A stretch of 64,000 nucleotides of DNA, taken from Candidatus Thorarchaeota archaeon (GTDB taxonomy: Archaea > Asgardarchaeota > Thorarchaeia > Thorarchaeales > Thorarchaeaceae). Numbering within the stretch: the stretch's first letter is position 1; each line of letters begins with the position of its first letter. The stretch covers positions 13,530-77,529 of the forward strand of contig PRDJ01000039.1 of NCBI GenBank assembly GCA_003345555.1, given 5' to 3'. A program made the translations under genes and the position numbers. This document shows, one piece after another, positions 3,244-52,462 of the stretch. Below the pieces are notes generated by a model. It had not been told where the DNA came from. It saw only the letters and a program-made list of their open reading frames with translations, and ran no database searches.

Positions 3244-4674
3244 CTACTTGGCTACGTACGTTTCGGCTCTTCTCAGGTTCTGCGTGTTGTGCCTGTTCTG
3301 AGGTTGAGTTCCCTTTAGCATGAAACCTAGAGCTGAACGCTGCGCGAGAATCTCGCCTGAAAGGAACGCCTTACCACCACTTGCTCTTGCCACAAGAAAG
3401 GCACCAAACGATTTTCGGAACTCAGGAATACTGATGACAGTCTCTATGGAATCCTGAAAGCCTTCCTTTTTAGCCCTCAGCAACACTGCCAGTTCCATTG
3501 CATCGTGGTACGGCCTCTTGAGGAGCTTCGACCACTTTGACTGTTCGGCGTCAACGTTTACTGCTGCCAATCGCACTCTCTGAGTTCTAAGCAATCTCGC
3601 GGCCCTTACGATATCGTGTACCGGAGAATAAGTGACATCCTCATGGTGTAAGGACGCGACCAATGGTATGTTGGGTGAGAAGTCCGAGACCATGATGATG
3701 AGAGACTCACCATTGCCTGCTCTAATGCGTTCTCGTCGTACTGTCTCCAAAGCCTTTGCCAGTCCGTCTGCCAGTGGTGTGAGACCAGAGATTCTGAGGC
3801 AAGCGAGAGCTCTGAATATCCTGTTCCAGTTTGAGGTCGGTGTCTGAACTTGGACTGCGCCGCTGTCCTTGAAGGCGACTATTCCAATCCTATCTTTCGA
3901 ACCTCTCGTTTCCTGTTCGATTTTCTCCACGAGCCTGCGCACTTCATTCATGCTGCCTTTCATTGACAGACTTGCATCAATGACAAGAATGATTGTAAGG
4001 GGAGCTCTTTGAGACAGAACCTTCTCTCGCAAATCCTCATCGCATATCTTCAGTCTCTCATGTCCTCTCGTCTTGCCCGTTCTGAGCGCGGCGGCAACAA
4101 TGGTAGATCTAATGCTTGGCGTGGACACTTCACCATGAGGCATTCTTGCACGAACGAATCTGCCTGTTTGCCTGCTTTCCGACGCCTTGAGCGAACCCAT
4201 GGCTCTAGAACTCACTCGCTTTCGGCACCAATTGCCTGATGACACGCTTGAACGCATCATCCCATGGGAGTGAAGCCGTTCTGGGTCGAAGAGGTTCTCG
4301 CCACTGGCTATGTCTGGGGGTTTCATGAAAAAACTCATATCGAGTCCGGTTGGACTGCTTCTGATGTCTGACTTGGGACCGGTGATCTTTGGAGGCACCG
4401 TTGGTGTGTACGGGTGTGTTGCTTCTCCCCACTCGTCGCCTTGATCCGGCGTCGCGCCTTGGGGCTCCACAACGTCAATTCCTGCCGCTGGTCCGCTCTC
4501 TCGTCTCATCATTCCCCTCAGCCAAGCACGAACGAGATAGTAGGCGCATGGGATGTACACGATGGTGTCTAGTGCCAGTACAAAGGGGCTCGGAAATGTG
4601 GCAGGGTTCAGGCCGTATATGAGGTTAATGGGACTGAAGAATATCCAGGCAAAATAAGTGAAGCCCACCACCAT
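3244..4674 (-). CDS. membrane-anchored von Willebrand factor A (VWA) domain protein, ChlD/BchD-like
   Basis: Two N-terminal hydrophobic helices, then a linker, then LTIILVIDASLSMKGS...IGIVAFKDSGAVQVQTPTSN...GLTPLADGL, a VWA MIDAS-type (DxSxS) pattern. It sits adjacent to and co-oriented with a ChlI-like ATPase. Confidence 0.7.
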   Translation of the reverse strand: MVVGFTYFAWIFFSPINLIYGLNPATFPSPFVLALDTIVYIPCAYYLVRAWLRGMMRRESGPAAGIDVVEPQGATPDQGDEWGEATHPYTPTVPPKITGPKSDIRSSPTGLDMSFFMKPPDIASGENLFDPERLHSHGMMRSSVSSGNWCRKRVSSRAMGSLKASESRQTGRFVRARMPHGEVSTPSIRSTIVAAALRTGKTRGHERLKICDEDLREKVLSQRAPLTIILVIDASLSMKGSMNEVRRLVEKIEQETRGSKDRIGIVAFKDSGAVQVQTPTSNWNRIFRALACLRISGLTPLADGLAKALETVRRERIRAGNGESLIIMVSDFSPNIPLVASLHHEDVTYSPVHDIVRAARLLRTQRVRLAAVNVDAEQSKWSKLLKRPYHDAMELAVLLRAKKEGFQDSIETVISIPEFRKSFGAFLVARASGGKAFLSGEILAQRSALGFMLKGTQPQNRHNTQNLRRAETYVAK

Positions 4675-7828: not shown

Positions 7829-8497
7829 CTACTTCTCTGCCTCTCGCTCTTTCTCCTCACGTGCCTCTCGTTCGAGATCTGCCAGAAGGTCGTCAATCCT
7901 TTTCTCTTCGGTGCGAGGTTTGCGGCCAGATTCTTTCTGCTTCTGCTTAGCGAGCGGCGGCAAGACCTTCTCCTTTTCCAGCATGATTTCTGCCTCCATG
8001 GCCTCTAGCTCCTGATTGATTCTCTTTTCCATCTCGACTGTGGTTCCACTCGTGGAGAGGTCTTCAGAGAGCAGTTCGCCTGCCTCAGATATTTGTTCGA
8101 ACGATTGTGTGAGTTTATCCAGCTGCATCTGTATCTCAACCGGGCTGAGCATGGCCTGCGCTTTTGAGAGTGCATCATTCGCTATCTTGAACGCTCCCAA
8201 GACATCAGTCTGGTCTTTTGCCTCCTCGATGTTCATGAGCGCTGTCTCAAGCGTGAGGAATTGCTGACGATATCTGGCCCTGCGGTTGTCCAAATCAAGC
8301 ATGATTGACAGGTGCGACCGGGCCAACGACTTTTCACCCCCGGCCATAGCCTCTTTCGCAGATTTTCGCTCTTCCTGCATTCGCGTTTCGAGCCTGCGAG
8401 TCCTAAGGGTCAGGGCATTCATGGTTCCTTTGATTTCGAGGATTCCTCGTTCGGTGTCCACTTTTTTCTTGCCGCTCAGAAAGCCCATTGCGTGCAC
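7829..8497 (-). CDS. ESCRT-III family protein (Snf7/CHMP/Vps2-like)
   Basis: MGFLSGKKK basic N-terminus, ~220 aa all-helical. Aligns along its length with CHMP2/Vps2 (LRTRRLETRMQEERKSAKEAMAGGE..ARSHLSIMLDLDNRRARYRQQF..ALMNIEEAKDQTDVLGAFKIANDALSKAQAMLSPVEIQMQLDKLTQSFE). Acidic C-terminal helix RIDDLLADLERE resembles a MIM. Confidence 0.75.
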   Translation of the reverse strand: MHAMGFLSGKKKVDTERGILEIKGTMNALTLRTRRLETRMQEERKSAKEAMAGGEKSLARSHLSIMLDLDNRRARYRQQFLTLETALMNIEEAKDQTDVLGAFKIANDALSKAQAMLSPVEIQMQLDKLTQSFEQISEAGELLSEDLSTSGTTVEMEKRINQELEAMEAEIMLEKEKVLPPLAKQKQKESGRKPRTEEKRIDDLLADLEREAREEKEREAEK

Positions 8498-36816: not shown

Positions 36817-38220
36817 ATGCCTAAGAAGTTCGTGCCAAGAGGGATAATGCCAGCCCTCATAACGCCATTCGCGAAAGATGGCGAGATAATCGAACAGAGC
36901 TTTCGCGAGATTATCGATTACACAATTAGCAAAGGAGCCGCCGGAGTCGTACCCGCTGGCACAACGGGCGAGTTCGTTTACATGAATATGGACGAGCGCA
37001 AGAAGCTTCTGAGTCTGACAACGGAATGCGTGAATGGTCGCGTTCCGATTATTGCAGGCACAGGTCAGAGCAGCACTGAAGCAGCTACTGAGCTGACGAA
37101 GTACGCGGCAGATATTGGATGCGATGCAGCTTTGATCGTTTCTCCCTTCTATTTGAAACCGACTGACAAGGGCTACTACGAGCACTATGCCACTATCGCA
37201 AGAAAGAGTGACCTGCCTGTCATAATGTATAATATTCCTCAGATGGGCGGTATGGGTGTCCTCCCTGTTAGCGTTGTGGAAGACCTAGCCGAACTGGACA
37301 ATATCGTAGGCATCAAGGACAGCAGTGGTAACATAACCTACATGCTGGAACTACTGCAGAAGCTAAAAGGCCGCATTTCTGTGATAAATGGCAATGACGA
37401 GATCTTCTTCTCTGCAGTGACTGCGGGTGTGAACGCCGCAATCATGGCCTCAGCGAACTTGATGCCTCATCTTTGGAATGATCTTTTGAAGAAAGTCCGC
37501 AAAGGTGACATTGATGGAGCCCTCAAGCTTCAGCTCTCGATGCAGACTCTGACTCGAATTGTGACAAGGTATGGAGGTGCTCCGCCAGTCAGGGCAGCAC
37601 TGAAGATGATGGGAATCGATTCGGGTAAAGCACGAATGCCACTTAACACAGGTGGGACGTTGACTCCCGAACTTAAGGAGGAAATAAGAGTCGAGCTGGA
37701 GAAGCTAGGGCTGATTGGGGGTTCAAAGCATGTTGGTCCAGCGAAAGAAGTCGACATTAATGGTGTCCTACTAGAGGCCGGATTGAGTGCCGAACAGCAA
37801 CAAGCCCTCAAGGTCGGACGCGGATCGAGTCAAGCTTGTACCGCCAGCGTCGTTTGTGGATCCAAGACCGGTCCCCTGGGATCAGCGTTTGTCCGATTGC
37901 TGACGACTCCGCGAATTGGACGCGAGGCACTATCAGTGATTCTTGAACCGAACTTGGCTGTCAGACCTTCCAGCCTAATGTTGCCGGGCAGAAAGATCAG
38001 CTCAATGCGTCAGGCGTCAGTGTTCTACGGTCCAGTGCAGTCCGGCGCTGCTAGAGCTGTTGCAGGTCACCTAGCTGCTGGCAAGATATCTCCTGACGCG
38101 GTTCAAAACAATGTCATGGTGATGGTGATCGATGTGGACTTGGATACAGTCGACAGAAGAGCAGTCACTGCCGCTACGGAGGTAGCGGTTTCCGCGGCTC
38201 TCAGTCAGATTTGGAGGTGA
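36817..38220 (+). CDS. DapA/DHDPS-like class I aldolase fused to a C-terminal Fae-like domain (paralog 1)
   Basis: N-terminal 295 aa: GIMPALITPF...GTTGEF..., the Schiff-base aldolase (DHDPS/NAL family) pattern. C-terminal ~170 aa aligns with formaldehyde-activating enzyme (LMLPGRKISSMRQASVFYGPVQSGAARAVAGHLAAGKISPD.. versus Fae [41 protein letters not shown]). Confidence 0.7.
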   Translation: MPKKFVPRGIMPALITPFAKDGEIIEQSFREIIDYTISKGAAGVVPAGTTGEFVYMNMDERKKLLSLTTECVNGRVPIIAGTGQSSTEAATELTKYAADIGCDAALIVSPFYLKPTDKGYYEHYATIARKSDLPVIMYNIPQMGGMGVLPVSVVEDLAELDNIVGIKDSSGNITYMLELLQKLKGRISVINGNDEIFFSAVTAGVNAAIMASANLMPHLWNDLLKKVRKGDIDGALKLQLSMQTLTRIVTRYGGAPPVRAALKMMGIDSGKARMPLNTGGTLTPELKEEIRVELEKLGLIGGSKHVGPAKEVDINGVLLEAGLSAEQQQALKVGRGSSQACTASVVCGSKTGPLGSAFVRLLTTPRIGREALSVILEPNLAVRPSSLMLPGRKISSMRQASVFYGPVQSGAARAVAGHLAAGKISPDAVQNNVMVMVIDVDLDTVDRRAVTAATEVAVSAALSQIWR

Positions 38221-38256: not shown

Positions 38257-39705
38257 GTGTACGCCGGACTAGTCACACCGTTTGGTGAGAACGGCGTCAA
38301 TGAGGCACAATACCGCAATCTGATTGAGCATGTTATCAAGGCAGGGGCAAACGGCATTGTTCCCTGCGCATCACTCGGCGAATTCACAAGTATGTCATTT
38401 GAGGAGAAAGCTGAAGCTATTCGAGTCGCATGCGACGCTGCGAAGGGACGGGTGCCGGTGCTTGCGGGTGCATGCGCGGCTTACACTGCCGACGTCGTCA
38501 AGCTGTATCTAAAGGCTGCCGAGTACGGAGCTTCGGGGGCGTTGGTAGTCTCTCCGTATTTCATGAAGCCTTCCACAAAGGAAATCTATGAACACTATGA
38601 GAAGGTTGCGAACTCAGCTGGTCTCCCAGTATTCCTGTATAATTGTCCACAGTTCACTGGCGTGAACCTCGACTGGTGGCTGATCGAAGGTCTGCGCGAG
38701 ATCAAGGGCATTATTGGGCTCAGCGATGCGAGCGGCAACTTGGTCAATGTCTCGCAGATACTCGCTCGTCGGCCAGAGGACTTTCAAGTTGTTGTTGGCC
38801 ATGATGAAGTCGTTCTGCCGAGTATGGCAGCAGGCTGCGATGGAGCTATCCTAGCAACTGCAAATATCTTCCCCGACAGATATGTAAGAATGGCGATTGC
38901 TCTAAGTCAAGGCGATCTCAAAGAGGCTAGACTCATTCAGCGTAGCGTTCAGAGAACCGCGAGAATCGTTGTCAACAAGGGCGGTCCTCTCGCTGTCAAG
39001 GCGGCCCTGAATATGATGGGCATCCCCGTCGGTTCTGCTCGAATGCCTCTCCTACAGGGCGATGTTCTGGGCTATGATGACTTAGATGAACTCAGGACAC
39101 AGCTGGAAGACCTCCAGCTGATGCCTAGAGGGTCAGTCACCTACAGGGCGCATGGTCGATCCGTTGTTACGGATGCATATCCGAAGGCTGTGGGAATGAG
39201 CAAGGACATCATCGATGACCTCACCCTCCTTCATGGAGAAGCTTTGTGTGGGGAGGGATTGGAAGTTGCTCATGTCGATCTGGTTGTGGGACTCAAGGAT
39301 GGGCCTATGCAGGCTGCCTTGACCAACGCAGGTATCAAGACCGATGGCTTCCATATGTCCAACATCATCAAGGACCTTCGACCTACGACCGTATTTGCGC
39401 CCACGGTGACAATCACCGACGAACATCACAGCAGGCTCGTGTTCGAGTTCGCTCAGAAGGCCGTTGCTGACGCTGTGACAAGGACAATCACAGACCGGAT
39501 GATTCCCGAGGAGCTTGTGCCAGACCTAGTGATTGCTGTGAAAGTGTTCGTCCATCCCAATGCCAACAACCCAAGACGGGTACACATGAACAATTTCCGA
39601 GCCACGAGGTTTGCGATAAGGCGAGCTCTGGAAGGTCGACAATCTGTAGAGGAGGTAGTTGCCCGAAAGGACTCAGCTCGTCATCCATATGGCTACAATC
39701 CATGA
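38257..39705 (+). CDS. DapA/DHDPS-like class I aldolase fused to a C-terminal Fae-like domain (paralog 2)
   Basis: GTG start. DapA-like N-half (LVTPF..., GEF). The C-terminal domain carries the Fae signature HGEALCGEGLEVAHVDLVVGLKDGP (Fae: [24 protein letters not shown]) and a KDSARHPYG end (Fae: KSATHPF). Confidence 0.75.
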   Translation: MYAGLVTPFGENGVNEAQYRNLIEHVIKAGANGIVPCASLGEFTSMSFEEKAEAIRVACDAAKGRVPVLAGACAAYTADVVKLYLKAAEYGASGALVVSPYFMKPSTKEIYEHYEKVANSAGLPVFLYNCPQFTGVNLDWWLIEGLREIKGIIGLSDASGNLVNVSQILARRPEDFQVVVGHDEVVLPSMAAGCDGAILATANIFPDRYVRMAIALSQGDLKEARLIQRSVQRTARIVVNKGGPLAVKAALNMMGIPVGSARMPLLQGDVLGYDDLDELRTQLEDLQLMPRGSVTYRAHGRSVVTDAYPKAVGMSKDIIDDLTLLHGEALCGEGLEVAHVDLVVGLKDGPMQAALTNAGIKTDGFHMSNIIKDLRPTTVFAPTVTITDEHHSRLVFEFAQKAVADAVTRTITDRMIPEELVPDLVIAVKVFVHPNANNPRRVHMNNFRATRFAIRRALEGRQSVEEVVARKDSARHPYGYNP

Positions 39706-44564: not shown

Positions 44565-45236
44565 TCAGTCCTGGCTGTCAATATGCGTTTTCGCGACAAG
44601 CTTTTCATCAATATAGAGAGCGACTGAATCTTCTCTCACTAGAAGCTTCACACTAGACCCGGGCAGGATGGTTACTCCTTGGAACACATAACCCCCGACG
44701 TGGGCTTGACAATCCCCGCCAATTGCCGTGTCATGGATGGTTTCCGTCAAAGAGACACCGTAGCTCGATGGTACAATCTTTAGTAAGTCAAGCAAGCGGT
44801 CCAGCTGTTTCGTTTCATGCTGTGTCAGGTACTCTCTCACAGTCTGATAGCCGAGATACCTATCTCGACCCCTGCCAACTACTTGGTCACGATATCGTCC
44901 GGTCGTAATCCTTTCAGCGGCGAGGTAGACCCCAAGCCCTCTCTCAATTGCATCGAGGTCTGTTCTTTCTTCTGCACGCCTCGAAGTGGACACGCAGGGA
45001 TGGCTCATTTCATGAGCCAGTAGACCTAGCAACGCGCACTGGTGCCATCGCTGGGCAGTCTTGTCACAAACAAGACTGATTGCCTCGCGTGGGTTGGTCC
45101 ACCTTATTTCAGCGAACGAGGACAGCCTGCTCCACTTTGCCCTCAGAGGCTGGTCAACGAGTTCTGGGTATGCGTATCTGGAAAGATTCGATACAAGCAT
45201 GCTGAGCTCAGAGTCGGAGTGTTTCTCCCTTCTCAT
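44565..45236 (-). CDS. hypothetical protein with HEMSH (HExxH-like) motif
   Basis: LLAHEMSHP is the only motif; a possible metal-dependent hydrolase. Confidence 0.35.
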   Translation of the reverse strand: MRREKHSDSELSMLVSNLSRYAYPELVDQPLRAKWSRLSSFAEIRWTNPREAISLVCDKTAQRWHQCALLGLLAHEMSHPCVSTSRRAEERTDLDAIERGLGVYLAAERITTGRYRDQVVGRGRDRYLGYQTVREYLTQHETKQLDRLLDLLKIVPSSYGVSLTETIHDTAIGGDCQAHVGGYVFQGVTILPGSSVKLLVREDSVALYIDEKLVAKTHIDSQD

Positions 45237-45473: not shown

Positions 45474-46238
45474 TTGGTGCGAGAAGCAGTTCCCAAGCCA
45501 GAGACACTTCAGGAAGTGGATGACTACCTCAAGAAGGTCAGATCAACAACGGTTTTTGATGTGGCCAATCGGTTCAACATTCGTATGAGTGTTGCTCGGA
45601 GTATATTGGCGGAAAGAGAGGCAAACGGCAGTCTTGTTCCGTACGTGCGCGATGGCGGATTCGTAGCATACTCAACTCCAGCTGAAATGGAGAAACGTCA
45701 GTCGGGTCGTGCCGTCCTTATCGCTGATGCACTCGAGGAGGTCGCATCATCTGTCACTCATGAGAGTCTTATGACTGACCAGGTGGAAACAGCGTTGGCA
45801 GCAGCTGCCAGCATGGCAGTGGTGAAGCCGGGCAAGATTGCACGCCAGAGACGAGAGTTTGGCGAAAGAAAAGAGAAGACAAGGGATCGGAGACCCGAAG
45901 TCCTCGTGCAGCCTTTGGAAGGCGAAGGCGAGACTGGGCGAACGCTGGAACCAGAAAGGGGATTCACTCGGCCGGTTGCTCCGAAGGAGACTCCCCGGGA
46001 GGTAGCGCCGAAGACCGCTATCGTATCGCCAGAGGCCCCACAAGCGAGTTCCCGTTCGAAGAAGACTCCATCCAAGCCCGAAAAGCCCGCCAGACCTGCG
46101 GCGAAGCCAAAAGAGAAAGCCGGGCCCAAGAAGAAGCCTGAGGCCGCAGCGAAGAAGCCTGCCAAGCCTGCGCAGAAGGCTCAAGTCAGGAAGAAACCAT
46201 CTTCCGAAAAGCCGACCAAGACCGTCAAGAAGAAGTAG
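45474..46238 (+). CDS. rps25e: ribosomal protein S25e-like winged helix with ~160-aa Lys/Pro/Ala-rich C-terminal extension
   Basis: VRSTTVFDVANRFNIRMSVARSILAEREANGSLVPYV aligns with the S25e core ([33 protein letters not shown]). The in-frame upstream codons encode ISKKKWGKPAAK, matching the S25e KKKWSKGK N-terminus. C-terminal tail KPARPAAKPKEKAGPKKKPEAAAKKPAKPAQKAQVRKKP. Confidence 0.6.
   Translation: MVREAVPKPETLQEVDDYLKKVRSTTVFDVANRFNIRMSVARSILAEREANGSLVPYVRDGGFVAYSTPAEMEKRQSGRAVLIADALEEVASSVTHESLMTDQVETALAAAASMAVVKPGKIARQRREFGERKEKTRDRRPEVLVQPLEGEGETGRTLEPERGFTRPVAPKETPREVAPKTAIVSPEAPQASSRSKKTPSKPEKPARPAAKPKEKAGPKKKPEAAAKKPAKPAQKAQVRKKPSSEKPTKTVKKK
45990..46235 (+). repeat. low-complexity Lys/Pro/Ala-coding tract (S25e-like gene tail)
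   Basis: Reiterated aagcc/gccaag/cctgc units encoding KPAKP/AKKP repeats. Confidence 0.6.
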
Positions 46239-46402: not shown

Positions 46403-47047
46403 TCACTTCATGCCAGCTATTTGCCTATCAAGATCCTCAAGCTGCGAATCCAGTTCGGCTTCCTTGGTCTTGTAGTCCTCTTCTGGAATGTATCCTCTCA
46501 TGTAGTCAAAGCGCAAGTCAGTCAAGGCAGCCTTCAAACGATCCTTCTGTTGCAGAAGGAAGTCGAGTTGGTCGCTAGAACCTGCAGGCGCTGCTGGAGC
46601 TGGAGCAGGAGCTACCTTTGCTGCGGGTGCAGCAGGCGCTGACTTCGCTGGGGCCGGAGCTAGTGCCGATTTCGCGGGAGCGGGTGCTGGCGCAGGCTTT
46701 GGCGTAGGTGCTGGAGCTGCTTTTGGAGTTGCAGCAGCCTTCGGAGGAGCTGTCGGTGCAGCCCTCGGTGGCGCAGTCGGGGCAGCAGCCTCTGCCGACA
46801 ATGAGCTTGGTTGTACTGCCTCCATAGTCTCCATGTTACGCCTAAGAGTGTCAATCTGGTCAGCAATCTGAGTAAAGCTATCATTGATGGTCTGATTAAT
46901 CGCGGTCTTCATCCTTGCCAAGTTCTCTGCCAGCTGATCGGCAAGCTTCTTTGTCTCCGCGACCTTGTTAGCAAAGCTTTCTATCGCCCTGAGCTTCTGG
47001 TTCAGCTCTTCCATTTGTCTTTGAATAGCGCTAAAATCGAAGGCCAT
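46403..47047 (-). CDS. coiled-coil protein with Pro/Ala-rich low-complexity linker
   Basis: N- and C-terminal amphipathic helices flank an (AP/PA/AK)n stretch (46560..46800, GC-rich low-complexity DNA). Confidence 0.5.
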   Translation of the reverse strand: MAFDFSAIQRQMEELNQKLRAIESFANKVAETKKLADQLAENLARMKTAINQTINDSFTQIADQIDTLRRNMETMEAVQPSSLSAEAAAPTAPPRAAPTAPPKAAATPKAAPAPTPKPAPAPAPAKSALAPAPAKSAPAAPAAKVAPAPAPAAPAGSSDQLDFLLQQKDRLKAALTDLRFDYMRGYIPEEDYKTKEAELDSQLEDLDRQIAGMK

Positions 47048-47144: not shown

Positions 47145-48017
47145 CTACGCAGGCACCGGTTTGGCTTCACCCTTTCCTTCAAGGATGGCTTTCCGGATGA
47201 TTTGAATGAGGCGGTCTCTATAGGAGATGTCTATCGCGACGAGCTCGTAAGTGGCGATTCCGAGAATCTGGCCCACTCTCTCAGGAGTCAGAGCAGTGGG
47301 CAGGTCTTGCTTGTTGGCGATGCCAATTACCTTGGCTTCAGGAACCTCCTCTTTGACCAGAGACACCAACTTCTTGCTACGCAAAACGTTCTCAAGGGTA
47401 CTATCGGTCACAATGATGACAACTTGGGCATTCGCTATCATCTTGGCCCAGAGGATACTAAACCGCGATTGACCCGCAAGGTCCCAGAGTACTATGTTCG
47501 CATTTTGGACTTCGTCCGGGAGCTTCTTTATCGATACACCGATTGTAGGATCATGTACCAGTGGAAGTGTCTCTCCCCTGAGCAGATGCAGTGTGGTGGT
47601 CTTGCCAACGCCTGCGTATCCAAGAATCGCCACCTTCACCATTGTCACTGCTATCTCGTCGACCTTTGCATCAAGACCTTCCAAGGGGAGGTTCGCTTCT
47701 GCAAGGGTTGCGAAGTCCTTTATGAAGGCATCAACTAGCTGCGTCATCCGCTCCTCTATCTGAGCTGTGTCGTCGGCCTTGTCGGCCACAAACATGAATA
47801 CGAAGTCGCGTCGAGCAGCATAGAATATCCTTGTCCCTGAGAAACCCATGTACTCTGTCTTTCCCTCCAGGTCAACTGAGGAAATGAAATGAGCGAAATT
47901 CACTAGGAACTCAACCAGTCCCTCTCCTGATTCGCTCTTGGCGTATTCTTTGGAATATATGACATTGCTCTGTTGTCCAAGTATGTATAGGCTTCTAATC
48001 ATTGCTCGCCACTCCAC
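47145..48017 (-). CDS. longin/roadblock-like N-terminal domain fused to a Ras-superfamily small GTPase
   Basis: GTPase motifs: G1 GYAGVGKTT, switch-I PTIG, G3 WDLAGQ, G4 ANKQD. The first ~125 aa (IRSLYILGQQSNVIYSKEY...FVFMFVADKADDTAQIEERMTQLVDAFIKDF) follow the longin/SRX/roadblock profilin-like pattern (compare Sec22/Ykt6 ...VVIADNEYPSRVAFTLLEKVLDEF). Confidence 0.7.
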   Translation of the reverse strand: MEWRAMIRSLYILGQQSNVIYSKEYAKSESGEGLVEFLVNFAHFISSVDLEGKTEYMGFSGTRIFYAARRDFVFMFVADKADDTAQIEERMTQLVDAFIKDFATLAEANLPLEGLDAKVDEIAVTMVKVAILGYAGVGKTTTLHLLRGETLPLVHDPTIGVSIKKLPDEVQNANIVLWDLAGQSRFSILWAKMIANAQVVIIVTDSTLENVLRSKKLVSLVKEEVPEAKVIGIANKQDLPTALTPERVGQILGIATYELVAIDISYRDRLIQIIRKAILEGKGEAKPVPA

Positions 48018-49117
48018 TTCTCGGCAAGTATCTCAAGATGTCTTCTGGCAATCTCAGGGGTTATCTCGTCGTTAGACAGCTTATCTGCTATCAGCGGCAG
48101 AACAAACTCTGGGATAAATGATTCCATGATTGGGTTGGTCACCAAAGCCCAGATTCCTTCTCCGATTTGTGCCGCAACATTTTCAGACTCTAAGCTGAAT
48201 AGCGCGTTTTGAACGATTTCTTCCTGAAGCAGCGTTCTGTTCGATATCTCTCTCACTGAAAGCGGCTCATCTCGCAGAGAAGTTAGGACCTTGTATTCGA
48301 TCTTCTTGGAAAGCACTCTCGCGATCTTTTCCCTGTCTTCGACCAGCGGTGAATTGGGGTCGTCGCTGGGTATCGTGGGGTTGTATCCTCGGCTCGGAGG
48401 TGGCGGTGCGAAGAACTCAGCAACTCGCTGTTGGTACTGAGCGGCGAGCCCGGGCATGGATTTCCTAGCTTTCGTGATGGCTTCAACTGGCGGGGCCCTG
48501 TAGGCAAATACGTCCTTTACTAGAAACACGGCCTCGATGCCTTTTCCTATGATTTCGACGTTGACGATACCAGAGTCCATCAAAGGTAAGATGGACTCCC
48601 GCAAATCCACGGAGTCGCTCTGGACTTGGCTCTTGAGCCAAATCGAGAGCTTCGCAGCTCTCTCGACTCCTTCGTTCTCAATCTTTTCAAGTACCAATCC
48701 TGATGATGGTGTCAGGAATATCTGGGCATATCTCTGTTCTTCGCTAGCTTCCCCTAGGCTGCTGTGGCTCTCGAGTATCTCATCAAGGTGAACCAGCTCA
48801 GGATTCTCGACCATGAGCTCAATTATCAGTCTCCCCATCCCTGGTATTTCTTCCTTAAGCCCTTCATAGTCCTCGTCAGCGGTCAAGACGAAGCATGCCA
48901 TCCAGCGGGGACGCGCTCTGTCTACAAAGGAGACTATCCGCACGTTGTCGATTTCACTGTACCTTAAGTTCTCCTTCTCTTCCTTCTCATGTTCATAGAA
49001 TATCAAGTTCAGGATCTTCTCGTTCAGCGAGAAAGAGAAGGGATGTCTCTTCTCGACAACAAAACCTTGGTAGTCGTCTAGGTGGACCACGAATATTGCT
49101 TGTGGCATGCCATGCAC
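47999..49117 (-). CDS. protein with a longin/roadblock-like N-terminal domain and a C-terminal winged helix
   Basis: AIFVVHLDDYQGFVVEKRHPFSFSLNEKILNLIFYEH...WMACFVLTADEDYEGLKEEIPGMGRLIIELM has a longin-like beta-beta-alpha pattern. C-terminal SVREISNRTLLQEEIVQNALFSLESENV is wH-like. Overlaps the GTPase gene start by 19 nt (operon). Confidence 0.45.
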   Translation of the reverse strand: MHGMPQAIFVVHLDDYQGFVVEKRHPFSFSLNEKILNLIFYEHEKEEKENLRYSEIDNVRIVSFVDRARPRWMACFVLTADEDYEGLKEEIPGMGRLIIELMVENPELVHLDEILESHSSLGEASEEQRYAQIFLTPSSGLVLEKIENEGVERAAKLSIWLKSQVQSDSVDLRESILPLMDSGIVNVEIIGKGIEAVFLVKDVFAYRAPPVEAITKARKSMPGLAAQYQQRVAEFFAPPPPSRGYNPTIPSDDPNSPLVEDREKIARVLSKKIEYKVLTSLRDEPLSVREISNRTLLQEEIVQNALFSLESENVAAQIGEGIWALVTNPIMESFIPEFVLPLIADKLSNDEITPEIARRHLEILAEKWSGEQ

Positions 49118-49197: not shown

Positions 49198-49698
49198 TCA
49201 GCTCTGTGAATCGTGAGCGTTTCGCTTTTCGAGATGCTTGACGCAGTTGATTCTGCCGAGGTTGTCAAGTATCCAGCAGTGTTCACACACAAGTTTCCCG
49301 CACTGAACACAGGTCCCAATGTAGTGATCGGGGCCATTCATCACGACCTCAAACCGGTTCCGGCTATGGTGAGCGCAGTATGGACGGCCGCAGGCGCTGC
49401 ACTCAACAGATTTTGCCTCGTTGCACAAGCAGCATGTCCTTTCCCGTTCAGAGGAGGCTTTCATGCCTTTTCCGTGTGGTGAAGGTACTCGTCGCTGTTC
49501 CTTTTCAGGTAGCTCGAGGGAACCGGGGCAATCAGAGTACCGGCAAGGGCCGACGCCCTTATAGCGGCCACATATCCCGCAGTAGGGGTCGAGGAGTTCG
49601 CTGTCTCTTTTCATAGCATTAGATAACCTCGCACCGTGACGGGACGACTCGTTTGACACGGTGTCGCCTTTTCGAGTCACTGGCTGGACGTCTAACAA
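49198..49698 (-). CDS. Cys-rich multi-zinc-finger protein
   Basis: At least four CxxC pairs (CGICG, CCLCN..CSACG, CVQCG..CEHC); the start may instead be the internal MKRDSEL. Confidence 0.4.
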   Translation of the reverse strand: MLDVQPVTRKGDTVSNESSRHGARLSNAMKRDSELLDPYCGICGRYKGVGPCRYSDCPGSLELPEKEQRRVPSPHGKGMKASSERERTCCLCNEAKSVECSACGRPYCAHHSRNRFEVVMNGPDHYIGTCVQCGKLVCEHCWILDNLGRINCVKHLEKRNAHDSQS

Positions 49699-49721: not shown

Positions 49722-52118
49722 TTGCCTCGCACTTTGGGGCAAGGGACCATTATGGACCACCACCATCAGCGGACTATTGTCCCAGTGGCAGCCATTAGTA
49801 CTGTTGAGATGGTAACCGGTCCACCTGTTCAGAAGCCAATCCCGGAAGACTACGTACTAGCGGATTTCGTTTTGAGGGCTATTGACAGCAAAGAGGGTCG
49901 GGATCTGGAATTCGTTTTGAAGGCATATCTGGATTTTCTCGTCATGCCCACCGGGTCCCCCGGCAAGTGCTTCTTTGTGGAAATGCGGGGCCTGACATCA
50001 GCCTCAGTTCCCGTACTCCAAGAATATGACTTGGATGAACTAATCAGGAAAGTGCACCATTCCGAAACACAATCACAGTTGGTTGCAGCCATCAAGGAGA
50101 CAGGCGTCTATGCGCGTGGGATTACTGGAGTCGAAGAGATTCTCCTCAGGGGCGTCGTTTCCAATCCGACTGCATCGAGCCTAGCCCAGCTACTTGCTTG
50201 GCCTATGAAGGAACAGGCCGAGACCTACTCTATGCTATTTCCGTCAACGATTGACACCTCGTATTGCACTTCGGTTCGCAACACTCTAAGGAATCTATCT
50301 GAGTTCACCCATAAAGCGGAGACGGGTCTACCGTGGTTGGTTGACGCTCTGAGAATGAAGGCTCGTGACATCATGGCTGCTCTGGAAGGCGATCTGTCTC
50401 CGAAGTTGAGTCGGCTTGACCTCAGGATATCTGCCCTGCGCAGGGAGATTTCTGGTATCGAGTCCAAGACCAAGCAGATACCAAGGTCTGAACGACACGG
50501 GCCTAAGGAGGCCGAAACAAGAGACCTGCTCAGGGCTCGTCAAACCGCCCTAGACAGAGACCTCAAGAGACGGGACAAGACGGTGTCGGAATCCGAGACG
50601 CTCAAGAGCGAGCTCAGTGAGACACTGAATGCAGTCCTCTCAGAGCTTGAAGTCTCTCATGAAATGATACTGGCTTTCCGAAAGAGCATCGACTCCATAG
50701 AGGCAACTGTGGGATCTCTTGATGTGCCCGAAGATGGTATCCGACTCCTTGTTCCTGTCATCATCGCTGGGCTATCAAAGAAGGGACGACTTGACATGGT
50801 CGTATACCCTCCCTCGATACTAATTCCCGGCACCCAGAAGGCTGGCCGCCGCAAAGACTTCACGGATTCACTGATATCGGCATCAGAGGAACTTGCACAG
50901 ATTGCTGCATGGTGTGAAGAACAGATATCAAATGATGTCACTCTGAAGAAGTCAATCCGTGACTCTTCGGAGGTTCGCAATCTTCTTGCCCTGAAGAACA
51001 CAAGAGCCGCAATAGGGGAAGGAGTGAAGCTACTGTTGGCCGACGGTTTCGCGAATGAGCCGGCGGTCAATCAGATTGAAACACTTCTTTCAGGCGTGCC
51101 AGAGCATTCACTGACCTTGGATGCAACTCCGCCGGCTGGTACTGAGCTGATTCCGGGCAAGGCATCAGACTGTACGCTAATCCTTCACGTTCGCGATGAA
51201 AACGATACTCCGGTGAACCATCCGGTCCTTGAAACAGCTGACATCAAAGCCGAAGGCAATCAACAAGGAGTCATCAGGGTCCGTCTTTGGGCTGGTCTTC
51301 ACAGGGCGAGCATTTCAGGAGCGGGCCACAGAAGCAAATCCATCGAGTTCAGCCTCCAATCAGGTACCGATGTTGTTATCCCTGTTGCTCTGTCTCCCCT
51401 TTCACGTGAGGAAGAGATTGAGAAGGAACTTGACCAACTAGTGGGTCGGGCGGAGCGCATTGACCAGGTTCGGAAGCGGCTGGCGGATGCATTTGGCGCA
51501 CAGGGCGAAACGATGCTCAGCATTCCGGCGTATCGGAGTTCCCTAGTTGAGCTCCTAGTGGACCTCGGATACGATCCGGAATCATGGATTTCAGAAGCAA
51601 AGAAGAAGAAAGGAATGGTCAAACGCTTTCTGAAACGAGACGACCGGGCGGATGCGCTCAGAAGAGATATCCTCCGAATTGCCGAGGAGTCAAAGCGATC
51701 AGGAGGTATCATGCTCTTTTCGGGTCTATTGGTCCAGCTGGACGCCAAGGGCTGGACAACAGACATGAATGAGGTGACGTCCATCATAGGCGGTTTGTCG
51801 CGCGATGGACTGATAGAGGGTCTAGCGACAATCGAAGGAGGTGCACGCCTAGTGAAATTCGTGCCAGTGGGGCTGACTGATGATCCTCAGAAAGTGCTGA
51901 GCCTCGCTGCAGAGAAGGATGGTCACCTGACCCCCGAAGACGTTGTGCTGAGCCTTGGGTGGACAGAGGAAAGAGTGAGAAACGCGCTGAATCTACTTGT
52001 CGCCAATGGAGTTGCGAAGGTCCAAAAGAGCTACTCGCAAAGTACTCAGTACTGGTTCCCGGGGCTTAGAATGCGCCCCGCGAGAGAACAGGAATCGCAA
52101 AAAGATGAGACAACCTAG
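49722..52118 (+). CDS. large protein (798 aa) whose C-terminal ~160 aa is an EAP30/Vps22-like tandem winged helix (ESCRT-II-like)
   Basis: The C-terminus aligns with human SNF8/Vps22 (GGIMLF..NEVTSIIGGLSRDGLIEGLATIEGGARLVKFVP..QKVLSLAAEKDGHLTPEDVVLSLGWTEERVRNALNLLVANGVAKVQ..STQYWFPGL versus GGLITL..DDLIRAIKKLKALGTGFGIIPVGGTYLIQSVP..VLQLAEKNGYVTVSEIKASLKWETERARQVLEHLLKEGLAWLD..AHYWLPALF). The N-terminal 600 aa hold a coiled-coil region and have no match I know. Confidence 0.6.
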   Translation: MPRTLGQGTIMDHHHQRTIVPVAAISTVEMVTGPPVQKPIPEDYVLADFVLRAIDSKEGRDLEFVLKAYLDFLVMPTGSPGKCFFVEMRGLTSASVPVLQEYDLDELIRKVHHSETQSQLVAAIKETGVYARGITGVEEILLRGVVSNPTASSLAQLLAWPMKEQAETYSMLFPSTIDTSYCTSVRNTLRNLSEFTHKAETGLPWLVDALRMKARDIMAALEGDLSPKLSRLDLRISALRREISGIESKTKQIPRSERHGPKEAETRDLLRARQTALDRDLKRRDKTVSESETLKSELSETLNAVLSELEVSHEMILAFRKSIDSIEATVGSLDVPEDGIRLLVPVIIAGLSKKGRLDMVVYPPSILIPGTQKAGRRKDFTDSLISASEELAQIAAWCEEQISNDVTLKKSIRDSSEVRNLLALKNTRAAIGEGVKLLLADGFANEPAVNQIETLLSGVPEHSLTLDATPPAGTELIPGKASDCTLILHVRDENDTPVNHPVLETADIKAEGNQQGVIRVRLWAGLHRASISGAGHRSKSIEFSLQSGTDVVIPVALSPLSREEEIEKELDQLVGRAERIDQVRKRLADAFGAQGETMLSIPAYRSSLVELLVDLGYDPESWISEAKKKKGMVKRFLKRDDRADALRRDILRIAEESKRSGGIMLFSGLLVQLDAKGWTTDMNEVTSIIGGLSRDGLIEGLATIEGGARLVKFVPVGLTDDPQKVLSLAAEKDGHLTPEDVVLSLGWTEERVRNALNLLVANGVAKVQKSYSQSTQYWFPGLRMRPAREQESQKDETT

Positions 52119-52462
52119 AGCCAATCTTCCTCCTCGTCTTCGCTGCTCTCTTCCTCTTCTTCTTCGTCTTCCTCTAACAAATCCTCTTCGGTCTCTTCTT
52201 CAATCTCCTCTTCCGGCTGTTCTTTAGCTGCGGGGCTGATCACTTCTTCTTCCTCTTCTTCTTCATCCTCGAAGAGGAAAGTTTCCTCATCTGGTTCTTC
52301 TTCACCCGGACGCTCCTTCTTGACTTTCCTCGGTTTCTGAACGGCAAGACAGATCTCATCGTCCGGGTCAAGAAATTCGCACTCTGGACAACACTCGCCC
52401 TTGTGAGTGCAGGTATAGAAGGCTCCACATTTCCGGCAGCATTTGAGCTCTTGAGTCAACAT
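52115..52462 (-). CDS. zinc-ribbon protein with hyper-acidic C-terminal tail
   Basis: N-terminal CCRKCG...CPEC ribbon; the C-terminal 60 aa are almost entirely E/D (EEEEEEEESSEDEEEDWL). Convergent, with a 4-nt overlap of the ESCRT-II-like gene. Confidence 0.5.
   Translation of the reverse strand: MLTQELKCCRKCGAFYTCTHKGECCPECEFLDPDDEICLAVQKPRKVKKERPGEEEPDEETFLFEDEEEEEEEVISPAAKEQPEEEIEEETEEDLLEEDEEEEEESSEDEEEDWL

Follow-up and report, generated by a model that had tools for sequence, protein, structure and literature searches.

A long Vps22-type protein with its own N-terminal module, encoded opposite a longin/Arf-like GTPase operon in Thorarchaeota

[quoted passage not shown] In a 64,000-nucleotide stretch of a Candidatus Thorarchaeota contig (PRDJ01000039.1; the whole stretch is hereafter the window), an intact open reading frame (ORF) runs on the plus strand from 49722 to 52118, and the end of its product resembles the ESCRT-II subunit Vps22, also known as SNF8 or EAP30. 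Counted from a TTG, the frame holds 798 codons, which is the protein length given in an earlier note made from the sequence alone. The frame is real, but translation probably begins at the ATG at 49752, where the database copy and most homologues start (MD...), which gives a protein of 788 amino acids (aa) beginning MDHHHQ.... Residue numbers below follow this 788-aa numbering, and ORF numbering is obtained by adding 10. The identical database protein (P0001) is the NCBI entry 'MAG: hypothetical protein C4K47_05220, Candidatus Thorarchaeota archaeon', and the members of its family are labelled either 'hypothetical' or 'PEGA domain-containing'. Base composition around the gene is uniform. Because no stretch of the protein is hydrophobic (the Kyte-Doolittle mean over 19 residues peaks at 1.27), it is predicted to be soluble and cytoplasmic. 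The gene and the parts of its product, several of them delimited on AlphaFold2 models with their predicted local distance difference test (pLDDT) scores, are the following:

49752..52118, plus strand: gene of the Vps22-like protein, 788 aa (mechanical ORF from TTG 49722; database copy and homologues start MD...)
49773..50201, plus strand: N-terminal module, part 1, alpha/beta domain, residues 8-150 (AlphaFold2, pLDDT ~90; no Pfam or PDB match)
50256..50699, plus strand: N-terminal module, part 2, antiparallel helical hairpin, residues 169-242 and 251-316, helices of ~70 residues each (AlphaFold2)
50700..51101, plus strand: N-terminal module, part 3, beta-meander and then a four-helix end (379-448), residues 317-450 (AlphaFold2; motif)
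51168..51395, plus strand: transthyretin-like/CarboxypepD_reg/PEGA beta-sandwich, residues 473-548 (Foldseek; Pfam in orthologues)
51405..51644, plus strand: Vps22-type N-terminal helical region, residues 552-631 (aligns with SNF8 30-~110)
51645..51866, plus strand: winged helix 1 of the EAP30 core, residues 632-705 (phmmer, AlphaFold2, Foldseek, identity)
51867..52076, plus strand: winged helix 2 of the EAP30 core, residues 706-775 (the best-conserved part; LGWTEERV...GVAKVQKSYSxSTQYWFPGL)

Residues ~552-775 form, by sequence comparison and structural modelling, a complete Vps22/EAP30 core of the ESCRT-II type, that is, a helical region and two winged helices. When all PDB chains were searched with the ORF by phmmer, human SNF8 was matched at E 2.2e-9, with ORF residues 570-783 aligned to SNF8 30-240 and hence to nearly the whole chain, and yeast Vps22 was matched at E 2e-4; a family profile matched SNF8 at E 4e-9. 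The three motifs that the earlier note had quoted (GGL/IxL, LxWxxER...L and YWxPxL) all lie within the SNF8 alignment, and its view of the C-terminus as a genuine EAP30/Vps22 rather than a generic winged-helix region is borne out. The note had, however, confined the match to the last ~160 residues, which proves too short: the homology spans ~215-225 aa and includes the helical region that precedes the first winged helix in Vps22 and Vps36. Compared by BLASTP with canonical Asgard Vps22 sequences taken from the supplement of Hatano et al. 2022, the core scores 80 bits at 33% identity against the Vps22 of Thorarchaeota AB_25 (ThorAB25_09030) and 70 bits against Lokiarch_37450, while these two canonical proteins reach only 68 bits between them. 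Within the window, the AB_25 Vps22 matches at 51639-52076 only (E 1e-19). The Pfam EAP30 model (PF04157), which the earlier note had proposed as a check, leaves the window protein itself below threshold, since its score is 16.5 bits and the gathering score 26.8, but is matched by all eight of the eight close homologues (best E 1.3e-7), and by the distant orthologue P0057 at 70 bits (E 3e-19), above the gathering score; membership in the EAP30/Vps22 family is therefore secure by transitivity through these homologues. A word-index search with a profile of the C-terminal part returned only fragments of the same family, and canonical Vps22 was not found by it.

Structure prediction leads to the same assignment. 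In the first AlphaFold2 model the core has moderate confidence (pLDDT 65-77), and its secondary structure consists of a helix at 552-590, further helices, winged helix 1 at 632-702 and winged helix 2 at 712-768, so that a helical region is followed by two winged-helix domains as in the EAP30/Vps22 fold. In a Foldseek search of the PDB, the top three matches are the Vps22 chains 2zme_A, 3cuq_A and 1u5t_A, aligned over 214 columns to targets of 213-219 residues at E 3e-7 to 3e-6, and Vps36 comes next at E 3e-4. Eukaryotic Vps22 thus provides the best matches in both sequence and structure, although it is a stand-alone subunit of ~230-260 aa. The EAP30 core is also the most conserved region within the family: among 20 family members, mean pairwise identity is 53% in the helical region, 51% in winged helix 1 and 60% in winged helix 2, against 22-37% in the other domains.

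With canonical Asgard Vps22 (asCOG cog.002769; ThorAB25_09030, Lokiarch_37450 and HeimAB125_14050) the long protein shares the same helical region and two winged helices, at 29-33% identity and 70-80 bits, together with the motifs GGI(M/I)xL, W(T/S)EER and (Y/F)(W/Y)FPGL. It is, as had been claimed, much larger, since the canonical proteins in the Hatano 2022 set measure ~240-250 aa and it is some three times longer. For Asgard Vps22, Makarova et al. 2024 (PMC10936438) describe proteins that are short and carry a fused steadiness box; in place of this short steadiness-box-like N-terminus, the long protein carries a module of ~450 aa and a beta-sandwich. The canonical gene resides in the ESCRT gene cluster with vps23, vps28, vps25 and vps4, whereas the long gene lies outside it. 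With its 788 aa, an unrelated N-terminus and flanks free of ESCRT genes at every locus examined, the protein falls outside canonical Asgard Vps22 as represented by cog.002769. Both AB_25 (L031) and SMTZ1-45 (L022) hold the long gene as well as the canonical short Vps22 (ThorAB25_09030 and, from Makarova's table, KXH75178.1, respectively), and hence the long protein is a paralogue of Vps22 and not its replacement. The long Vps22-like protein is itself single-copy.

The N-terminal region, residues 1-450, is predicted to fold as one compact module, with a mean pLDDT of 90.5 and a predicted template modelling score (pTM) of 0.79 in an AlphaFold2 model based on a 38-sequence alignment. The long coiled coil pointed out in the earlier note is confirmed and takes the form of the antiparallel hairpin at residues 169-242 and 251-316. 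The beta-meander holds the family hallmark PFxxxGxSKKGxLxxxVxPPS, which is shared with a family of Bathyarchaeia proteins, and P335 is invariant across the 38 sequences. No Pfam or NCBIfam family was found for the module of ~450 aa, NCBIfam giving only a coiled-coil artefact, and Foldseek returned no PDB neighbour at E<=1e-3 for the pLDDT-90 model, so that the structural comparison suggested in the earlier note yields a confident model with no significant neighbour in the PDB. A longin fold, which the order of secondary-structure elements had suggested for the N-terminal alpha/beta domain, was rejected, as no longin appears in the Foldseek PDB top 50 and hhalign gives a probability of 0.1 against the longin-like domain of the neighbouring GTPase.

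Between the N-module and the core lies a beta-sandwich (473-548), for which Foldseek matches 6hif_Y (E 1.4e-4, TM-score 0.79), 5aq0 (TM-score 0.80-0.84) and 2nsm; the matches include the transthyretin-like (TTR) domains of carboxypeptidases D, N and M. In orthologues, PEGA exceeds its gathering score of 20.8 (P0075, 22.5 bits; P0093, 23.5 bits) and CarboxypepD_reg reaches 30 bits in P0075, slightly under the gathering score; in the window protein itself the TTR/PEGA-like assignment is one of fold level only. In a profile search with the N-terminal part, positions 455-550 draw many matches to repeat proteins. The statement that the protein has no other recognisable domain thus holds for its first ~450 aa, which belong to no known family, but not for the sandwich.

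Distribution was assessed with that N-terminal profile in an exhaustive hidden Markov model search of 1.84 billion representatives, of whose 207 matches the best 150 were listed. Among the matches listed are ~25 full-length representatives of 760-805 aa with the same architecture, and the full order of N-module, beta-sandwich and EAP30 core is found in Candidatus Asgardarchaeia, Candidatus Asgardarchaeum and metagenome-assembled genomes labelled Odinarchaeota. When a single genome was scanned for each GTDB species, 70 genome loci carrying the gene were obtained, nearly all labelled Thorarchaeota and including SMTZ1-45 and AB_25. Judged by these sequence matches, conservation of the family extends over Thorarchaeota, and at least one further Asgard class has it too. 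In a neighbour-joining tree of EAP30 cores, the Thor-type and the Asgardarchaeia-type proteins each form a clade with 100% bootstrap; the tree resolves neither the position of these clades among canonical Asgard and eukaryotic Vps22 nor, at only 34% bootstrap, the monophyly of all the big proteins.

A separate set of ~530-550-aa proteins, Bathyarchaeia 'hypothetical proteins' without any Pfam domain, matches the N-module only, so the N-terminus that the earlier note had called novel belongs to no known family but is not unique to the long protein. This ~540-aa family (MEM2917168.1; P0120, P0107 and P0119) is homologous to residues ~50-450 and has, like the N-module, an alpha/beta domain, a long hairpin, the PF...PPS beta-motif and a helical end with a GW motif; it differs in having neither beta-sandwich nor Vps22 core, and its gene adjoins that of a ~590-aa P-loop protein instead of a small GTPase. 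This conserved ~590-aa protein, with the Walker A motif GEPGTGKS, follows at L009 9701-11491, L081 8628-10409 and L082 8647-10401, and this arrangement may be a conserved operon. It has no Pfam or PDB match and no homologue near the Asgard genes, and the idea that it could be a Rosetta-stone counterpart of the TTR and EAP30 part was abandoned because there is no similarity. Ahead of the Bathyarchaeia N-module gene stands an NTP_transferase gene, joined in L081 by a PIG-P-like gene. Since the N-module is found alone in Bathyarchaeia proteins, it predates the fusion, the beta-sandwich and the Vps22 core having been added in Asgard archaea. Among the best 150 of the 207 matches there is no eukaryotic homologue of the module.

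The gene has near-constant company. At 46 of 48 informative loci, namely those of Thorarchaeota where 3.5 kb or more of sequence is available upstream, the same divergent neighbours occur, with a GTPase operon lying upstream on the opposite strand. In the window these neighbours are:

47999..49117, minus strand: winged-helix protein, 369-372 aa, with one recognisable winged helix (~residues 267-323), first operon gene (Pfam; synteny 46/48)
47145..48017, minus strand: longin-like N-domain and Arf-like small GTPase, 285-290 aa, second operon gene (Pfam Arf, E 5.5e-20)
46403..47047, minus strand: coiled coil, Pro/Ala-rich linker (~90 residues) and C-terminal CdvA-like/steadiness-box-like hairpin, 214 aa, third operon gene (PF18822)
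49198..49698, minus strand: Cys-rich zinc-finger protein (in 36/48 informative loci and in L005)

The GTPase gene starts before the 372-aa winged-helix gene upstream of it has ended, and none of its neighbours comes near it in conservation. The GTPase shows 74-87% identity across Thorarchaeota (median 81%) and still 56% in the distant locus L005, and among genomes whose GTPases share 74-87%, the Vps22-like protein is only 30-48% identical. Its N-terminal 116 residues are co-linear with AP-2 sigma 1-116, a weak profile match (E 0.1), and this longin-GTPase architecture has been described earlier for Asgard Rag/Arf-like proteins (PMC10933270). For the N-terminus of the 372-aa winged-helix protein, a PDB profile search gave only a winged helix of the Z-alpha type, at E 0.26. 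The hairpin of the 214-aa protein matches Pfam PF18822 in five of five orthologues, though short of the gathering score (E 5.9e-5 at best), and the protein's C-terminal 40 aa, with the motif LTDLRFDYMRGYIPEEDYKxKExEL, are 60% identical in L005. The CdvA-like PF18822 is equated with the steadiness box by Makarova et al. 2024 (PMC10936438), and the layout of this neighbour is reminiscent, by analogy, of an ESCRT-I subunit. The zinc-finger protein has several CxxC pairs and a weak ANCHR-like B-box match; because its homologues align only from residue ~29, its gene probably starts at M29 (49614), which would leave a divergent intergenic region of ~137 bp to the Vps22-like gene.

In the deep lineage L005, which encodes P0057, the GTPase, the hairpin protein, the zinc-finger protein and two more neighbours lie at most 5 kb from the gene in a different order. 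This regrouping argues for functional coupling and not frozen synteny, as the same neighbours are clustered again in another arrangement. In the non-Thor Asgard loci L005 (12421-16529), L007 (10374-14421) and L008 (10346-14417), the gene is followed in the same direction by genes for a ~220-aa and a ~1140-aa protein, the former poorly conserved and the latter conserved, with a weak GCS2 match; a CDC48_N/VWA-like 424-aa gene is also found nearby in L007 and L008. None of these ~220-aa, ~1140-aa and 424-aa genes has a homologue in the window.

Three smaller genes also adjoin the locus. A 223-aa protein with an HExxH-like motif (HEMSHP; 44565-45236, minus strand) stays with the cluster even in L005, and a 254-aa protein (45474-46238, plus strand), composed of an S25e-like winged helix and a long Lys/Pro/Ala-rich tail, is clustered there too. 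On the other side, a 115-aa protein (52115-52462, minus strand) combines a Cys-rich zinc ribbon at its N-terminus with a poly-Glu/Asp tail of ~70 residues whose last letters are W-L; its gene converges on the Vps22-like gene with a 4-bp overlap at the stop of the latter, and is kept downstream of it in most Thorarchaeota at a median identity of 56%.

Elsewhere in the window, the sole ESCRT gene noted is that of an ESCRT-IIIB (Snf7-family) protein at 7829-8497 on the minus strand, 41 kb off, which is 67% identical to ThorAB25_07240 and stands between genes for a HAD hydrolase and an inositol monophosphatase. The earlier note was right that this ESCRT-III gene is unlinked to the long one, and right as well that Vps4 is lacking; in the 64-kb window neither Vps4 nor Vps25 nor canonical Vps22 was found. 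The ESCRT-IIIB gene of AB_25 is likewise separate from the main ESCRT cluster, and a VWA-domain protein is encoded near the window's ESCRT-IIIB gene, at 3244-4674. One plus-strand reading frame is open over at least 2271 codons, from 57184 up to the window's last position, 64000; the giant protein that it encodes has a syntenic counterpart in L002, a 2531-aa gene, and shows weak, repeated similarity to a 1258-aa protein beside the Asgardarchaeia orthologue (L007). Tandem paralogues at 36817-38220 and 38257-39705 (plus strand) each consist of a DHDPS-family domain fused to a formaldehyde-activating enzyme (Fae) domain.

Several known proteins offer partial parallels. Many patchy multidomain ESCRT-related proteins have been noted, mostly based on Vps28-C or the steadiness box, and archaeal ESCRT systems repeatedly contain Ig-like domains and coiled coils; the combination of N-module, sandwich and Vps22 core is not described in the available text of the same survey (PMC10936438). 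The arCOG09748 proteins of euryarchaeal ESCRT loci, for which that survey gives an N-terminal domain, a coiled coil, a globular domain and a Vps22-like C-terminal winged helix, bear a loose likeness by description only, and differ in having a single winged helix and in being encoded beside Vps4 and ESCRT-III. The earlier note had also considered an ESCRT-I/II-like fusion, which finds no support, as Pfam detects no UEV, Vps28 or steadiness-box domain in the 788-aa protein (E<=1) or in its homologues (E<=0.1), and no GLUE/PH signal in the protein.

The reading that we favor, with a probability of roughly 45%, is that the protein may be an alternative ESCRT-II-type adaptor, possibly controlled by a GTPase. 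The conserved Vps22 core would pair with a second EAP30 core, either its own or that of canonical Vps22, self-association of Asgard Vps22 having been reported (Hatano 2022, PMC9192718). Through this core the protein may reach Vps25 and ESCRT-III, and the N-module and beta-sandwich would supply recognition of a site or cargo, as the GLUE domain does in Vps36. Recruitment or activity might be switched by the neighbouring longin/Arf-like GTPase, which is suggested by the near-constant divergent linkage to its operon. Such an adaptor fits the report that Thorarchaeota lack ubiquitin (PMC9192718). A broader version, in which the GTPase, the winged-helix protein, the coiled-coil protein with its ESCRT-I-like hairpin and the giant Vps22 paralogue together would constitute an alternative ESCRT-I/II-type module recruiting ESCRT-III to GTPase-marked rather than ubiquitin-marked sites, is distinctly doubtful. 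Eukaryotic ESCRT-II is coupled to Rab7 through RILP.

A number of observations weigh against an ESCRT-II adaptor and lend themselves to a different account, in which the protein is an ESCRT-independent effector or scaffold of the GTPase, part of a separate trafficking, tethering or cytoskeletal module with the GTPase, winged-helix and coiled-coil proteins, and its tandem winged helices are only a platform for dimerization or protein binding that does not feed Vps25 or ESCRT-III. The genomic link is with the GTPase operon and in no case with ESCRT genes, none of which was found within 8 kb on either side in any lineage examined, and the GTPase, with its median identity of 81%, is very strongly constrained. 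At the position of yeast Vps22 D214, presumably a contact to Vps25, the Asp is retained in five of six canonical Vps22 proteins (human, yeast, Thor, Heimdall and Odin), but is replaced by Gln or Glu in the Thor-type long proteins and missing in the Asgardarchaeia type. The stand-alone N-module family of Bathyarchaeia has no ESCRT context and is paired instead with the conserved P-loop protein. The candidates for a Vps25-like neighbour, the 372-aa winged-helix protein and the product of the ~220-aa gene in L005, L007 and L008, both fail the Asgard Vps25 profile. Outside Thorarchaeota, the linkage to a GTPase is weaker evidence, because Asgard genomes are rich in small GTPases. By virtue of the missing ESCRT linkage, the N-module without ESCRT context and the replaced Asp, this account keeps substantial weight. 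It is nevertheless on the unlikely side, as the whole Vps22 core is kept, including the helical region used in Vps22-Vps36 pairing, and is the most conserved part of the protein; its distance to canonical Asgard Vps22 does not exceed that between canonical Vps22 proteins of different classes; and the coiled-coil neighbour carries an ESCRT-associated CdvA/steadiness-box-like hairpin, albeit as a weak match.

Other explanations carry much less weight. The long protein shares the logic of eukaryotic Vps36, in which a recognition region (GLUE/PH) stands ahead of the tandem winged helices of a second paralogue beside Vps22, and this 'Vps36 logic', already noted before, is a reasonable functional analogy. 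[quoted passage not shown] That the protein is a true Vps36 orthologue, the missing second stalk subunit of a heterotetrameric Asgard ESCRT-II and directly ancestral to eukaryotic Vps36, is nonetheless very improbable. Foldseek does match Vps36 chains, but at E 3e-4 compared with 3e-7 for Vps22; in sequence, no Vps36 chain is matched at E<=10 against 2e-9 for Vps22; no GLUE/PH domain is detected at E<=1, the N-terminal region being far larger and unrelated; the tree puts the cores, unresolved and with the 34% value given above, among Asgard Vps22; and eukaryotes lack the N-module among the matches listed. A nucleic-acid-associated role in chromatin, transcription or chromosome organization could be read from the tandem winged helices, which commonly bind DNA, together with the Lys/Arg-rich patch EAKKKKGMVKRFLKRDDR and an SMC-like coiled coil, a basic segment with a pI of 9.2 in which an archaeal SMC-related protein is weakly matched below threshold. 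Sub-threshold matches to TFIIE_alpha and the DUF7343 HTH domain, and one fragment labelled 'PadR family transcriptional regulator' by JGI, point the same way. We regard this role as improbable, since the similarity is specific to Vps22 over the whole length, non-winged-helix helices included, the weak HTH matches all lie inside winged helix 2 and far below cut-offs, and the neighbours are trafficking-type proteins and not genes of DNA transactions. A chance or generic winged-helix resemblance in an ORF that is no real conserved gene would have in its favor only the Pfam score of this one sequence (16.5 against 26.8 bits), and is refuted to the point of being negligible by the SNF8 match, the 70-bit EAP30 match of the orthologue, the Vps22 chains at the top of the Foldseek list and the 70 syntenic orthologous loci.

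Whichever account of its partners is preferred, the long protein is a real, conserved and previously undescribed variant of the known ESCRT-II machine, to judge from a literature search that returned no paper mentioning the family or its architecture; the asCOG tables were outside that search, and earlier cataloguing there is possible. Its N-terminal part defines a new archaeal module of ~450 aa, confidently foldable and without a significant structural relative in the PDB. The family indicates that diversification of EAP30 paralogues with new N-terminal recognition regions occurred within archaea, the same step that gave eukaryotic Vps22 and Vps36. For the targeting of archaeal ESCRT-II, above all in Thorarchaeota, where ubiquitin is not recognisable, a second Vps22-type subunit with a dedicated N-module and a near-invariant GTPase link is a candidate alternative arm, testable in the yeast two-hybrid and pull-down set-up earlier applied to Thor AB_25 proteins. 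If the broader reading, with the long protein as the hub of the module, is true, a GTPase-driven ESCRT route would explain ESCRT targeting in Thorarchaeota reported to lack ubiquitin, and would constitute a prokaryotic precedent for the control of ESCRT-II by a small GTPase.

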